A DNA stretch of 13,826 nucleotides, from the NCBI GenBank assembly GCA_037442925.1, contig JBBIPG010000061.1, forward strand, positions 1 through 13,826, written 5' to 3'. Numbering within the stretch: the first letter of the stretch is position 1; every line of letters begins with the position of its first letter. Below are positions 3,001-9,000 of this stretch, piece after piece. Made by a program: the position numbers. Source of the stretch: Candidatus Fraserbacteria bacterium. Lineage in GTDB: Bacteria; Bipolaricaulota; Bipolaricaulia; RBG-16-55-9.

Positions 3001-6000
3001 GAACTGGTTCGCTGCCAACCGCGAACAGCTTCCCGCCGCAGAGGAAGCGACGGAAGGGCGTTGGGGGCTCAAAGAGCTGTTGCCTTTGGTGCTCTGGACA
3101 GGGTTGCTCGATGGGATCAACCCCTGTGCTTTCGCCGTCCTGCTCTTCTTCCTTGCCTTCATGTTCACGCTCCAGCGCGCCCGCGCCGAGATGCTGCTCA
3201 TGGGAGGCGTTTACATCTCCATGATCTATCTGGCCTATTTTGGGATTGGGCTTGGGCTTTTGGGAGCGATCGTCATCTCCGGGGCACCACATCTCATGGC
3301 CCAGATCGGCTCATGGCTCTTGATCGGACTGGGGCTCGTCAACGTCAAAGACTATTTCTGGTACGGGCGCTGGTTCAGTCTGAGCGTCCCTAAGATTGGA
3401 CACGATAAGGTCTTCGATTGGCTAAAGCGGGCGACTCTCCCCGCGACAGCCATTGCGGGCTTTCTCGTGGGGCTATGCACGTTTCCGTGCAGCGGGGGGA
3501 TCTACGTGGCCGTGCTGGGGCTGCTCTCCACGAAGACGACGTACTGGACAGGCTTTTCATATCTTTTGCTGTACAATGTGATGTTCGTGCTTCCATTGAT
3601 TGTGCTGCTGCTGGCTTTGGGCAATCGGAGAGCCGTGGGAGCGCTCTCCCGCTGGGAGGCTCAGAACAAGCGGGCGCTCAAGCTAGGTACCGGAGTTGTG
3701 ATGATCCTCTTGGGTGCTGCTATCTTGATCTGGTTTGTGTAGCGATGTGCACGAATAAGGGCAGCCATGCAGATTAGCCTCGAGCTCTTGCCGTTCTCCT
3801 TCGCCGCCGGGATTGCGACCTTCTTCAGTCCCTGCTTCGGGGCGATGCTGCCGGCGTATGTATCACTCTATTTCGCGCAGGAAGAGAGGGATCCCTCACT
3901 CTGGTGGACACGAGGCCTTCAGGGTCTGGTTTTGGGCGGCGTGATCAGTGCGGGTTTCCTTACAAGTCTGGGCGTGCTCGGGCTGATCTTTGCCGTGATC
4001 GGCAGCGCCATCGGCCGTTATCTCCCCTGGGTGGCCGTTGCCGTGGGAGCGGGAATCGCGCTCACGGGTTTGCTACTTCTCTTGCGTCCTTCGTTCTCCC
4101 TGTCGCTGGGCGCAGTGATAGGACGTTGGTTGCCCCTCAAGGCCAAGACAGATGGCAGCCTCCGCTCCTTCTATCTCTACGGGCTCTTTTACGCCGTCTG
4201 TGCTTCTGCTTGTACATTGCCGGTCTTCCTGGCTGTGATGACGCAGACTTTTCTCAGTGGGGGACTGGCCAACGGCCTGCTTCACTTTGCTGCCTATGGG
4301 TGGGGCATGTCGGTGATGATGCTCCTTTTCTCTGTGTTGCTTGCATATTCCAAGCAGATCGTCTATCGGATCTTTCACTCCATGGGGCACTGGGTGGCGC
4401 GAGCCAGCGGAGTCTTCATGATCGTTGCTGGAGGCTATGTGCTCTACTATCTGCTGATCTACGGCCGGTATCTGGATGAGCTAGTAGGGAGATGATCGAA
4501 ATCAGCCCTTGTGTTGATGGAGATCATGTAAGGAGAAAGCACCGCGCTGCTATAATCCAAGCACTAGCTTGGGAAAGAAGGGCAAGCGATGCTGAAAAGA
4601 CTGACCGTCGCCGTGATCATCCTCGCCGCAGCAAGTCTTACAGCATTGGTGAGTTACTCCTATCTGACGAGCACTTTCTTTTCGCAAAACCGCTGGGTGC
4701 TGCGCGAGGGAACGGGGATCTTTTGGGAGGCCGAGCGTGCGCCCCAGGCGCTGGAACCAGCTCCAACCCTTGGCTTTCTTGCCCCGGATTTCACCCTGGC
4801 CGACCTAAACGGCCAGATGATCACGCTCAGTCAGCTTGTGGGCAAGCCCATCCTCCTGAATTTCTGGGCCAGTTGGTGCCCGCCCTGCCGCAAGGAGATG
4901 CCGGATCTTCAGGCCTTCCATGAGCAATACAAAGATCAAGTGGTCGTGCTGGGGATCAATTGGGCCGAGGAACCAGAGACCATGCGGGCTTTCCTCGAGC
5001 GCTACGATATCACGTATACGAATCTACTGGATCGGCAGGGCAAGGCCTTCGTTGCCTATCGGCTTACGGGCCTGCCTACCACGTTCTTCCTCGATGAGCG
5101 TGGGGTGATCCGTGGCGTGTGGCTGGGACCCTTGAAGACAGAAGAGATCGCGGAGGATTTCGCCAAGATCACCAAGTCCTTCCAGCTCCGGCGATGAGAA
5201 AGGAACACAGATGAAGTGCCCAAACTGCGGAACCACAAACACGAGTGACAGCAAGTTCTGCCACGAATGCGGCACAGCTCTCCCTCAGGCAGCAGCAGCC
5301 ATGCCCACATCTCCAAGCCGCGACGGGCCTGCATTACTCTCTTTCGATGAGAAAGTCAAGAGGGTGCAAGAGGAGTTGACCGGGCTCGACTGCGGTCGCT
5401 GCGGCTACGCAAGCTGCGCGGAGAACGCCGCCGCCATCGTGCGCGGCCAGAGCCCTTACGATTCCTGCGTCCAGGCTTCGCCCGAAGCGCGTGAGCGCAT
5501 CCGCCTGATCCTGGGCCTGCCCGAGAGCGTATCCGTATCACAGCACCTCTGGAGAACTCTCACGTCGGTGAAGCTGGCCATCGGACTCATTGCCGCTTTG
5601 GCACTGCTTTCGATCCTGGGCACGATCATCCCTCAAGGTCAGCCCGACATGAACTATGTCAACCGGTACGGGCTCACCGGCTACAAGCTGATCAAGTTCT
5701 TCACGGTCGATAAACTCTTCCATAGCTGGTACTTCTTGGGACTGCTGGCGCTTCTGGGCTTAAACACCTTGGCTTGCTTGATCAAGCGGTTTCAAGTCTC
5801 CTGGCAGCTACTGCGCCGGCCTCACGAGGGTCAATCTCCCGTGCAGCTCCTCCGGCTGGAGAATAGCCTCGAGTTGCCCACAGGAGCAGCTCCCAGTGCC
5901 TCACTGGAGCGTGTCGCTGTAATACTCACTCATAGGGGATATCGTATCCGCAGGAACGGGCTACAGCTTGCCGCCCAAAAGCATCTCATGGGCCGGCTCG

Positions 6001-9000
6001 GTGTCGATCTCTTCCACGCTAGCTTGCTGCTGCTCCTGATGGGTGCCATCGTCGGCGGACTCTTTGGCTTTGAGGGGTTTCAAGTTGCCCATAAGGGCGA
6101 GATCTTCGATGTGCCAGGCTCCGACTTTCAAATTCGAGTCGACGACCTCTGGACAGTCAACTACCCTGACTCCTCACGGATCAAAGACTGGTATACCCGT
6201 CTCACCGTTCTCGAGGGTGGCCAAGAGGTGAAGACCCAAACCATAGAGGTCAATCACCCCCTGACGCATAAGGGCATCAGCTTCTATCAGTCGTCGTTCG
6301 GCTCCGACTGGTTCGGAGGGGCGCAGCTCACATTTGCCGTCAAGCAAGGCGCGGATGGCACAGCTCTTAGCGAGTACGAGGTAACCGTGGGTGATACGTT
6401 CCCCCTGGAGGCAGATCTTGTGGCTAAGCTGATTGCCTTCTATCCGCACTTTGTGCTCACGGAGCAGGGACCGAGGAACCGCAGTCAAAGGCTCGAGAAC
6501 CCCGCGGCGTATCTGGAGATCTATCAGGGCAATACTCTGAAATACTGGGGCTGGACCTTCGCACACTTCCCTGACATGCAGATCTTCGTTGCCGCTGAAC
6601 CCAAGCCGAGTCCGTCTGATGATTCTGCCCCAGGACCGGGGCATGGAGGCCAGGGAGAACTGCCCTATCGCATCGAGATAGCCGGCATGCATGCTCCCGA
6701 GTTTACGGGCCTGCAATTCAGTTACAACCCCGGCATCTGGCTGCTCTATACCAGCTTCATTCTGATGACCCTGGGCATGTTCCTCAATTTCTATCTTCCG
6801 CCCCGATGGATGTGGGCAGTGGCCGAGCGCGGCCGGGTCTGCCTGGGGGGGAAGGGACGAGATGATCACGAATTCATGAGTGAGTTTGAGATAGTCGCCG
6901 AGGAGGTACGCAGGGCTCTGCCGGCGGCCTCGGCAGAAAAGGGGGAATTGCGATGTTCGACAGCACGTTCTTCTTCTACTTGAGTGCGATGGGCTACTTT
7001 GTGGGGTTCGTCTGTTACTTATTGCACCTCATCGGGGCTCCCCAAGGCAAAGGCGGTAGCGGGCGCCTCGGCGTCGTCGCGGGCGCGGGAGCCGGGGGGC
7101 TTACGAAGCAGACGACGTGGGGAACGCTGGCCACCTGGATCACGGTGGTGGCCTTCGCGAGTGCTACGCTGGGGGTCATCTTGCGGGTGATGGAGCTCTG
7201 GCGGGTCTCCGGCTTCTTCCTGCCACTGCCTGTCACGAGCAGCTATGAGACGTTTGCTTTCTTCGCCTGGGTGATCCCGCTGGCCTATCTCATCTTCGAG
7301 TGGCGCTACAAGATCAAGACGCTCGGGGCTTTCGCCATTGGGTTGGCGTTCTTATTTGTGGCTCTGGCTTCCTCGCCACTGGTGGCCGACAAGGGAGCTC
7401 AGCCGCTGGTGCCGGCCCTGCAGAGCTATTGGCTGGTGGCTCATGTCATCTTCACCATCGTAGGTGAAGGATTCTTCGCTCTCGCATTTGTGGCCGGGCT
7501 GCTCTTCCTCTGGCAGACCTGGCGGGGCAAGGAAGCTCTCGCTGTCAAGAAACTCGATGAAGTGGGTTACAAGGCCATTGCGATTGGATTCCCCTTCTTT
7601 ACGCTGGGGGCATTGATCTTTGGAATGGTCTGGGCTCAACATGCCTGGGGTCGGTATTGGGGATGGGATCCGAAAGAGGTTTGGAGCCTGGTCACGTGGT
7701 TCGTCTTCGCTCTATATCTGCACGCCCGGGTCGCCTGGGGCTGGCGCGATCACAAGACGGCTTGGCTAGCCGTCTTTGGCTTTGTGGCGGCGCTCTTCAC
7801 CTGGTTCGGTGTCAATTACGTGCTCTCCGGACTGCATAGCTATACGGGCTAGCGATGGACGGATCTCGCACTTGGGTTGTGCGCTGAGCCCCATTCCACT
7901 GCTCTTGTAAGACAAAGTGATCTTGTGCTAAAATTAACTTAAAGAAGGAGGGAAAATGATGACCAAGATGAGAGGGTTGTTGCTTATTGGGTTGGCAGTA
8001 TTGGCAGCGTTCGGCCTTCAAGCCTCGCCCAGTCTCACGCAACAAGAGTTGCCAAGTCAGATCGTCATGGGCGGGCCCATCAGTCTATCGGGCGCGTATG
8101 CCAAAGAGGGCTCTCAGGGTCTTTGGGGCTTTCAAGTGGCAGAGAAGTGGGTCAATGAGGTCTACGGTGGCGTTCGGATCGGAGGAAGGCAGATTCCCAT
8201 CAAGTATGTCTACTACGACGACGAGTCCAAGAAAGAGAACGTGACCAGCTTGCTCGAGCGGTTGATCACAGTGGACGGCGTGAAATTCCTCTTCGCTCCT
8301 TATTCTTCCGGGCTGACTCTGGCCGGAGCCCCCGTCGCCGAGCAGTACCAGGCGCTCTACAACTCCCACGGCGGTGCCAGCGACCGCATCTTCGAGCAAG
8401 GCTATAGATATGCCGTTCAGACGATCGTTCCCGGCACCAGATACCAGGTGGACATGTTCGATATGATGAGGGCCCTGGATCCTCAAGCTACCAAGGTCGC
8501 TTTCCTCTTCGAGGACGATGAGTTCACCAGGACGGTTAGGCAGGGGGCCTTAGCATATGCTACAGCACTTGGATTCGACATCGTCTTCGATCGAACCTAC
8601 CCCTCGAAAGTAGCGGATTTGACTCCCGCTCTCACCGAGATGGCCGCGACCAACCCAGACTTCCTCGTGGGGGGAGGCCACTTCGCTGATGGCCAACTGC
8701 TAGCGCAGCAGATCGGGGGTCTGGGCATAACGCTCAAGGCCGCATCCATCGTCGTGGCCCCGACCTTACCCGCCTTCGGTGAAGCTCTGACGAATCAGGC
8801 CAATGGCTTCATCGGCCCGGCCCACTGGGAGATCGGGGTCAAGTTCAGCCCGGAAACGGCCTCTTACCCCTGGTTCGGTCCAACCAGATCGGAAGAGCTC
8901 GATACATTCCGCCAGATCTCAGGAGGCGTGGAGCCGGATTACCATGGTGCGGAGGCTACAGCCGCACTCCTCTCTTATGTGCTGGGGATCACGATGGCCC

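Follow-up and report, generated by a model that had tools for sequence, protein, structure and literature searches.

An RnfB-type Fe-S domain fused to ResB in one Bipolaricaulota order: a candidate redox centre for heme delivery in a System II cytochrome c synthase

The stretch of DNA analysed here (the window) comprises the 13,826 nucleotides of contig JBBIPG010000061.1 from a Candidatus Fraserbacteria bacterium. It carries an operon in which the cytochrome c synthase subunit ResB (CcsB) is fused to an N-terminal extension (Table 1). The fused gene is preceded by a ribosome-binding site, AAGGA, at 5200-5204; a scan for promoters and terminators stayed at chance level. A genome-wide survey's note had described the protein as beginning with a zinc ribbon and a four-Cys Fe-S domain ahead of the first membrane helix, and this is what we find. 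All three Pfam domains score above their cut-offs: Zn_Ribbon_1 (29.1 bits for a gathering cut-off of 25), FeS, PF04060 (aa 58-87, 36.3 bits for a gathering cut-off of 23) and ResB, PF05140 (256.7 bits for a cut-off of 24.6, spanning profile positions 1-485 of 486). The Fe-S motif reads C61-x2-C64-x4-C69-x16-C86, and the first hydrophobic helix (aa 122-140) comes after it, the maximal hydropathy within aa 1-110 being 0.58. The genome contains two resB genes, as the note also held, and two ccsA genes.

Table 1. Features of the fused resB locus (positions in the window)
Feature	Position	Strand	Remarks
CxxC domain + DsbD-like membrane domain protein	2495..3742	+	neighbour gene
CcdA/DsbD-TM-like protein	3767..4495	+	PF02683 29.9 bits (cut-off 27.1)
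ResA/TlpA-type membrane thioredoxin (CxxC)	4589..5197	+	upstream of fused resB
resB/ccsB fusion	5211..6983	+	single ORF, 590 aa; zinc ribbon and PF04060 Fe-S domain N-terminal to ResB
Zinc ribbon, aa 2-24	5214..5282	+	CxxC-x10-CxxC
FdI-like Fe-S domain, aa 44-103	5340..5519	+	predicted [4Fe-4S] ligands C61, C64, C69, C86
ResB body, aa 120-559	5568..6887	+	4 TM helices, large outer domain, TM-His H269
CcsA partner	6953..7852	+	P-His1 H164, WWD domain, TM-His1 H257, P-His2 H295

Downstream of the extension, the ResB body is intact. Its TM-His, which a profile alignment (7s9y) equates with H83 of H. hepaticus CcsBA, is invariant in 45 out of 45 alignment rows and in 52 of 53 database homologues, the remaining one being truncated; C189, at the inner end of TM2, is also conserved. 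The inner flanks of the four hydrophobic windows are richer in K+R, which points to an N-in topology, and the secondary structure of the AlphaFold model agrees with four TM helices, at a pTM of only 0.41. When the full-length model was submitted to Foldseek, no match reached E<=0.001 (the best was 7s9y, E 0.014), and the matches in the ESM Atlas were all plain ResB clusters, with scores <=0.76. The CcsA partner (299 aa) reaches 219 bits with TIGR03144 (cut-off 187.6) and residues H164, W232, W236, D239, H257 and H295 are invariant in 36/36 sequences; its diagnostic columns are mostly common to outgroup CcsA proteins that go without the Fe-S domain. A CcmF-type System I subunit is ruled out, since the partner passes TIGR03144 and the only other PF01578 gene of the genome is a 300-aa CcsA next to the second resB. 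As judged from sequence, the fused protein and its CcsA form a System II heme exporter/cytochrome c synthase that is canonical in other respects, with heme export and attachment as predicted functions.

What sets this ResB apart is the Fe-S domain. Its sequence matches RnfB (8ahx_B, E 1e-4) and CFeSP (4djd_C), and the nearest free-standing domains found are those of RnfB proteins from a sister family of the same class (best 78.9 bits). In Foldseek, the modelled domain best matches the cluster domain of CFeSP (2ycl_A; probability 1.00, E 0.52), 51 residues superposing with an rmsd of 1.6 Å. A match to RnfB (9eri_B, residues 34-95) stands at rank 45 (Z 5.9, rmsd 2.4 Å over 62 residues), below helical-hairpin matches to the TM part. 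These fold matches are statistically weak, yet consistent with the sequence matches to the same two proteins. Overall, its nearest counterpart is FdI, the mobile domain of RnfB. The fused protein as a whole is not an RnfB: it has no Fer4 domain, it scores 24.4 bits with TIGR01944 where 68.7 would be required, and the other RnfB NCBIfam models stay far below cut-off.

The domain is under strong purifying selection, with a dN/dS of 0.029 compared with 0.150 for TM1-2 (10 genomes of genus g9). The four Cys, given in the note as invariant in 19 of 19 proteins, are so in 53 of 53 database homologues. The spacing from the fourth Cys to TM1 is 32 residues in 49 of these 53, and a span of 159 residues is free of indels in all 19 fused genomes. 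The linker between ribbon and Fe-S domain varies from 35 to 64 residues. The ribbon itself is doubled in one family (f3) and is also found on a ResB that has no Fe-S domain (G023); it is probably an accessory, protein-binding module. Complex prediction for the Fe-S domain with the ResB body, CcsA and heme (score 0.01, mark 0.32) supports neither side.

Fused ResB proteins occur in 19 of the 35 genomes of one Bipolaricaulota order, a count that reproduces that of the survey, and in none of the 149 other genomes of the phylum; beyond the order, the fusion was not found among 1.84 billion representative proteins. Homologues are more numerous than the 20 reported in the note: a profile search brought 56 matches, 49 of which are fused clusters, with a gap in score from 211 to 87 bits. 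The fused proteins form one clade, distributed over three families, in the quick tree on which our ResB phylogeny rests, and fused and unfused paralogues have coexisted since before these families split. The RnfB-type FdI domain was gained once, early in this order. Split or stand-alone ribbon and Fe-S proteins were absent from the 25 candidates returned by a weak search, and the fusion was not found in searches of the published literature.

The note had placed the gene in an operon with a DsbD-type protein, a thioredoxin and CcsA. The last two do adjoin it, and a ResA gene lies directly upstream in 16 of the 19 fused loci mapped. The DsbD-type genes are rejected as part of the system because, of these 19 loci, only that of the present genome has DsbD-type/CcdA-like genes flanking the fused gene; such genes also flank an unfused resB in another genome (G001). 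Neither a dedicated electron donor gene nor any other conserved partner gene was found beside the operon in the fused loci mapped, nor do these loci contain rnf genes.

HemB/HemC were not found in 13 of the 19 fused genomes, including this one, and ferrochelatase was not found in 14, the fusion being present both with and without it. As a genome-level rule, an adaptation of the fusion to heme auxotrophy fails: HemB/HemC occur in 7 of the 21 genomes that have a fused-type operon and in 4 of the 8 that have other ResB only, so that the other 4 of these 8 lack them. A search of this genome revealed no clear heme importer, its single FecCD system being more like BtuF. Two further genes were rejected as indications of heme synthesis: an AhbD-like radical SAM gene (C6; 308 bits for a cut-off of 500, about 35% identical to genes of relatives' hem operons) and a URO-D match that is best with MtaA-family methyltransferase models, all below cut-off.

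An association is seen with multiheme cytochromes. The fused-type operon is found in 19 of 20 multiheme-rich genomes of the order and in 2 of 15 multiheme-poor ones, although 10 of the 19 fused genomes belong to one genus, so that the co-occurrence effectively rests on about three families. Two genomes with multihemes and apparently no fusion (G012 and G033) are cases of contig breaks, in which the N-terminus of resB is unseen, and were counted as 'fused-type operon' only. That this operon tracks multiheme cytochromes is new here. In the present genome, eight clustered genes contain 68 CXXCH motifs. Unusual heme motifs are ruled out as the target of the fusion in this genome, its 14 cytochrome candidates including no CXXCK and one longer Cys-His motif. 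We conclude that the fused copy is the paralogue maturing the many multiheme cytochromes of this lineage, maturation being its predicted role.

What could the Fe-S domain add to such a synthase? The note had proposed a cytoplasmic redox centre for heme delivery. A conserved cytoplasmic RnfB-type domain on an intact ResB is borne out by family matches, predicted fold, topology, spacing and selection; the redox role in heme delivery is what we infer, as the most likely function. More specifically, we give an even chance to a tethered one-electron relay, with a predicted [4Fe-4S] cluster, keeping heme ferrous at its cytoplasmic entry. The four Cys would bind the cluster on the inner face of the membrane, adjoining TM1; the domain would accept a single electron in the cytoplasm, for instance from ferredoxin, and pass it to heme entering the vestibule or the TM-His site, and heme would thereby be exported as Fe(II), the state required for thioether formation. 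Such a relay would matter most at high heme flux, or in cells that scavenge heme instead of receiving it from ferrochelatase. Several observations count against it: System II synthases elsewhere manage with no domain of this kind; in two genomes (G023 and G085), multihemes accompany a ResB that does not carry it; another (G020) has the fusion and full heme synthesis but no paired-CXXCH match; and the missing donor gene and heme importer, as well as an auxotrophy that does not track the fusion, point the same way. A bolder version, which we hold to be possible but rather doubtful, is that the synthase would also be a ferredoxin-driven heme reductase: in bacteria without heme synthesis, ferric heme from the environment would be reduced at the membrane by a [4Fe-4S] shuttle borrowed from Rnf and built into extensive multiheme chains for electron transfer.

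Another possibility, unlikely in our view, is a sensor or gate: the cluster would report oxygen, redox state or iron and switch the synthase on only for anaerobic multiheme chains, leaving housekeeping cytochromes to the unfused paralogue. The long coexistence of the paralogues would fit this, as would the multiheme genes around the fused copy in 13 of its 19 loci, compared with 0 of 18 for the sister unfused clade, and a fixed tether would suit allosteric coupling; relatives are moreover described, in part of one account, as capable of both nitrate and oxygen respiration (PMC9586279). However, the characterised homologues found, RnfB and CFeSP, are electron-transfer proteins, nothing hints at an open site, the four ligands all being Cys, and no transcription-like or signalling output domain is seen. 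The ribbon and Fe-S domain could instead form a docking module recruiting a heme carrier, ferredoxin or heme-making enzyme to the vestibule, with a structural cluster passing no electron to heme. A cytoplasmic domain of unfused CcsB-CcsA pairs has indeed been proposed to help heme delivery (section of PMC10663686), and the domain has strongly conserved surface residues (R63 in 49/53, G79 in 53/53), as the ribbon has its Cys wherever it occurs. We nevertheless consider docking distinctly unlikely, given that the operon has no conserved partner gene next to it, that the fusion is kept whether or not ferrochelatase is present, and that a costly redox-type cluster would be odd for docking alone.

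In a transmembrane conduit, electrons from the cluster would reach the outer active site by way of a resident TM-heme, as has been suggested for CcmF, the reductant of which is called unknown (section of PMC10663686), or would feed a ResA/CcdA thiol route reducing CXXCH. The adjacent ResA genes speak for the latter, but CcdA-like genes accompany only one locus, in a count of the genes beside the fused loci. A single [4Fe-4S] cluster is a poor match for thiol exchange, in which two electrons are transferred. Moreover, the partner scores as an ordinary CcsA whose diagnostic columns are those already mentioned, and we regard this route as highly unlikely. Lastly, the N-terminus might be a mere passenger, i.e. 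a chance fusion, a mis-assembly or a relic without role. Its confinement to one order, and the absence of the domain from 146 of the best 150 ResB representatives, would agree with that; it is largely refuted, and now hardly credible, because a single open frame recurs in 19 independent genomes of three families, with the low dN/dS, invariant Cys and indel-free span described above.

If the relay reading is right, the interest of the fusion is that it offers a removable, spectroscopically visible redox module at the point of heme entry. How heme reaches CcsBA and is kept ferrous is left open in the passages of a structural review that deal with it (PMC10663686), and the fused ResB makes this question testable. 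The physiology is apparently unreported: 14 of the 21 fused-type genomes show no HemB/HemC but carry genes for many multiheme cytochromes. If the synthase can work from ferric heme, it could aid recombinant production of multiheme proteins. The narrow range, one order, limits the importance of the finding.

Compared with known System II synthases (H. hepaticus CcsBA, PDB 7S9Y/7S9Z; B. subtilis ResBC), the fused protein and its partner have in common the ResB domain, the TM-His, four TM helices with a large outer domain, a CcsA with WWD and three His, and an upstream ResA; only the fused ResB has about 110 extra cytoplasmic residues at its N-terminus, with zinc ribbon and PF04060. The passages on the CcsBA structures speak of no more than a vestibule and a cytoplasmic domain at the C-terminus, and have Fe(II) heme transported from that vestibule, with a handoff from ferrochelatase suggested (PMC10663686). 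Elsewhere, the potential of CcsBA heme is put at about -125 mV (excerpt of PMC6299221), and purified CcsBA is said to have needed only DTT (excerpt of PMC8112865). With the FdI domain of RnfB (PDB 8AHX, 7ZC6, 9ERI), the four-Cys motif, the predicted fold and a membrane-proximal cytoplasmic position are in common, but the polyferredoxin tail is missing and the domain stands before instead of after the membrane helix, on a short fixed tether. The likeness to the N-terminal domain of the CFeSP large subunit (AcsC/CfsA; PDB 2YCL, 4DJD) is one of predicted fold, and the cluster there presumably has a role in reducing Co(II). CFeSP also joins a [4Fe-4S] domain to a tetrapyrrole-handling protein, in an account that calls the mechanism of that reduction unresolved (part of PMC4934906), but it is a soluble methyl carrier with cobalt and not a membrane heme exporter. 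For Rnf, it has been proposed that FdI, as a mobile domain, shuttles single electrons to an iron site embedded in the membrane (part of PMC9588780). Finally, CcmF of System I is an example of a synthase for which a redox route of its own, making heme ferrous, has been proposed (section of PMC10663686); CcmF relies on a resident b-heme, and CcmE supplies it with heme on the outside, whereas the fused ResB has a CcsA as its partner and its additional cofactor would be an Fe-S cluster on the inside.

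The gene at 5211–6983 is a single frame of 590 amino-acids, with a ribosome-binding site 6 bases 5′ of its ATG. As the genome-wide survey's note had it, a zinc ribbon and an Fe-S domain precede the first helix of ResB (see table). The Fe-S stretch had six solved-structure matches at E ≤ 10, all of them RnfB or corrinoid Fe-S protein (CFeSP), and a predicted structure of residues 44–202 (pLDDT 83.5, pTM 0.50) can be overlaid, though with weak statistics, on the cluster domain of either protein. The protein belongs to ResB/CcsB and is neither RnfB nor CcmF. The genome, 94% complete, holds two resB, two ccsA and three PF04060 genes; the second resB, which has its own thioredoxin and ccsA alongside, is devoid of such an N-terminus, in agreement with the same note.

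Features in and around the window (window positions unless a contig, locus or protein is named)
Feature	Location	Evidence or content
Cytochrome b gene and small downstream ORF	1–1446	second such pair on contig C19, ~75% DNA identity over 880 bases
Two DUF1573 Ig-like proteins and a CxxC+DsbD-like membrane protein	1518–3742	one DUF1573 protein with CxC and weak likeness to OS_HP2 selenoproteins
Fused resB	5211–6983 (+)	
Zinc ribbon	aa 2–24 of 590-aa ResB protein	Pfam, above cut-off
FeS (PF04060)	aa 58–87 of 590-aa ResB protein	Pfam, above cut-off
ResB	aa 120–559 of 590-aa protein	Pfam, above cut-off
Promoter-like site	7905–7934	precedes the ABC transporter operon
Branched-chain amino acid-type ABC transporter operon	7956–12657	3′ of ccsA
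Overlap with C19	13691–13826	G000:C19:1–136; 136 bases, 97.8%
CcsA of unfused paralogue	L008:11098–12000 and sister loci	derived, long stem branch
AhbD/NirJ2-like radical SAM protein (L128)	G000:C6:37055–38332	C-terminal PCP_red domain
Hybrid operon (L010; also L216–L220)	G000:C17:23010–28848	Rieske, cytochrome b N-half, RnfC, RnfD, membrane-anchored Fer2+PF04060 protein, Fer2 protein with cytochrome-b-C-half-like tail

The hybrid operon is conserved. For RnfA/E the count is 19 of 21 genomes in families f3 and f4 of the order, against none found in the nine of family f1.

Judged by its residues, the fused System II synthase is intact. All 45 ResB rows keep H269, which pairs, in the alignment, with H83, the TM-His of Helicobacter hepaticus CcsBA; the ccsA overlapping fused resB passes TIGR03144, and H164, the WWD residues, H257 and H295 of the CcsA partner are kept in 36/36 rows. 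C189, presumably the heme-binding Cys of B. subtilis ResB, is invariant in 45/45 rows, fused and unfused alike. Hydropathy gives four helices, the first not before residue 122. Basic residues are enriched ahead of TM1 and TM3 and behind TM2 and TM4, so that by the positive-inside rule the N-terminus would be cytoplasmic.

A match spanning both domains was found in 19 of 184 genomes of the phylum, all within the 35 of the order, where they represent three of the five families, which reproduces the earlier count. The note's figure of 20 proteins proved too low, since a profile search that scored 8000 candidates from the 90% clusters yielded 56 matches, 49 of them fused proteins. Among 1.84 billion representatives (4342 matches at E ≤ 0.001, figures resting on the best 150), four proteins span both domains at 200–278 bits, the next match is at 102 bits, and none of the other 146 joins ResB to the Fe-S domain. 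A GTDB-wide scan gave 18 spanning loci among 80 of 172 confirmed ones, labelled Bipolaricaulota, Acetothermia or Fraserbacteria (15) or uncultured Thermotogae (3). In a quick tree of 42 ResB bodies, stripped of the extra domains in fused rows, all 19 fused proteins lie on one side of a single branch (SH-aLRT 93), and 16 CcsA partners group likewise with weaker support (78); a single origin is therefore likely, though not proven. Among the matches listed, the closest free-standing domains belong to sister-family RnfB proteins, which suggests that family's RnfB as a possible donor. One database protein, P0133 (263 aa), carries three PF04060-like repeats with Ala/Pro linkers between them.

Of the operon company described in the note, the thioredoxin (ResA was mapped upstream in 16/19 fused loci) and CcsA held up, but the DsbD-type protein did not: with the DUF1573 genes it adjoins fused resB in the window only, and the same block stands beside unfused resB in another genome, G001. 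No link was seen between the ABC transporter operon and the synthase. In the CcsA of the unfused paralogue, Ala replaces the Trp after KET in 14/20 rows and some rows have extra membrane segments; its substrate may be special.

Multiheme genes occur within the fetched flanks (up to ~7 kb) of 13/19 fused loci, as against 0/18 sister unfused loci; five more distant unfused ResB loci also have them. Through the overlap with C19, the distance from the fused operon to a set of eight genes, which together encode 68 CXXCH motifs, would be ~12.6 kb; the same junction is found on a same-genus contig. Besides this cluster, C19 carries a molybdopterin oxidoreductase-like operon and two Rieske/cytochrome b sets. 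Genomes with three or more paired-CXXCH matches were called multiheme-rich (20/35): 17 have the fusion, two carry a ccsA of the fused type beside a contig edge that cuts off resB (identity to fused partners, 95% and 86%), and G023 is the exception, whereas the fusion occurs in 2/15 multiheme-poor genomes; these genomes are kin, and no statistic is given. In G023, on contig C9, a multiheme cluster ends with a ResB (L085) that carries a doubled zinc ribbon without the Fe-S domain and falls on a separate branch.

Heme auxotrophy was considered as a cause of the fusion and rejected. The same 11/35 genomes of the order have both HemB and HemC, while ferrochelatase occurs in 10 and ChdC in 8; the genome under study has none of the four, and tblastn with relatives' HemA, B, C, D, E, H, Y and ChdC gave no match there. 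An assembly gap is unlikely: serC and mraY adjoin each other mid-contig here, and it is between them that G032, a relative, has hemH and hemE. HemB/HemC are lacking in 14/21 fused-type genomes and 4/8 others, thus without tracking the fusion, and no clear heme importer was found; auxotrophy is context, not cause. HemB/HemC were not seen in 24/35 genomes, 14 of them multiheme-rich and probably auxotrophic for heme despite a large inventory of cytochromes c (region concerned in this genome, G000:C14:32503–34706). The L128 gene, near a cytochrome bd subunit I-like gene in this genome devoid of upstream heme synthesis, possibly serves salvage.

The four Cys of the Fe-S domain are invariant in 53/53 database homologues, which extends the earlier observation to a larger set. 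From the domain through the end of TM2 (159 residues), 19/19 genomes align without gaps; the Cys4-to-TM1 spacing is 32 in 49/53 (31 once, 30 once, two not scored), and the ribbon-to-cluster linker varies from 35 to 64. Over eight diverse rows, conservation is 0.61 for the domain versus 0.62 for the TM-His helix and 0.35–0.53 elsewhere. Within one genus (ten genomes), dN/dS rises from 0.029 in the domain through 0.091 in the ribbon to 0.150 in TM1–2. By these measures the domain is under constraint; that it is a mere passenger seems to us very improbable. The ribbon is single or double and missing from 7/53 entries, in some perhaps through a start-call artefact, because at least one of them, P0004, starts at an internal Met.

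We put at about even the chances that the domain is a [4Fe-4S] relay which, on its fixed tether, would reduce or re-reduce heme at entry. This reading combines three published points: in CcsBA, Fe(II) heme enters at a cytoplasmic vestibule and travels to the TM-His site, handoff from ferrochelatase being only suggested (PMC10663686); its His pairs are said to maintain the reduced state of heme, at a potential of about −125 mV (PMC6299221); and FdI of RnfB is mobile, a proposed one-electron shuttle to a membrane iron site (PMC9588780). Against the relay, DTT suffices for purified CcsBA with no other accessory factor (PMC8112865), multihemes are matured in other lineages without an Fe-S domain, and no electron donor gene is linked to the fused operon. 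An oxygen or iron gate is unlikely, a docking module rather more so, and a CcmF-like conduit or a feed for the thiol route is slightly less probable again.

No description of Fe-S-fused ResB was found in the literature covered, most subscription journals and supplements lying outside its scope; PF04060 is absent from the literature matches listed, and public database records call the fused proteins plain ResB. A review (PMC3884852) describes cytoplasmic heme binding by B. subtilis ResB, with a Cys probably responsible. Compared with the System II so far described, the fusion is a real, previously unremarked variant.
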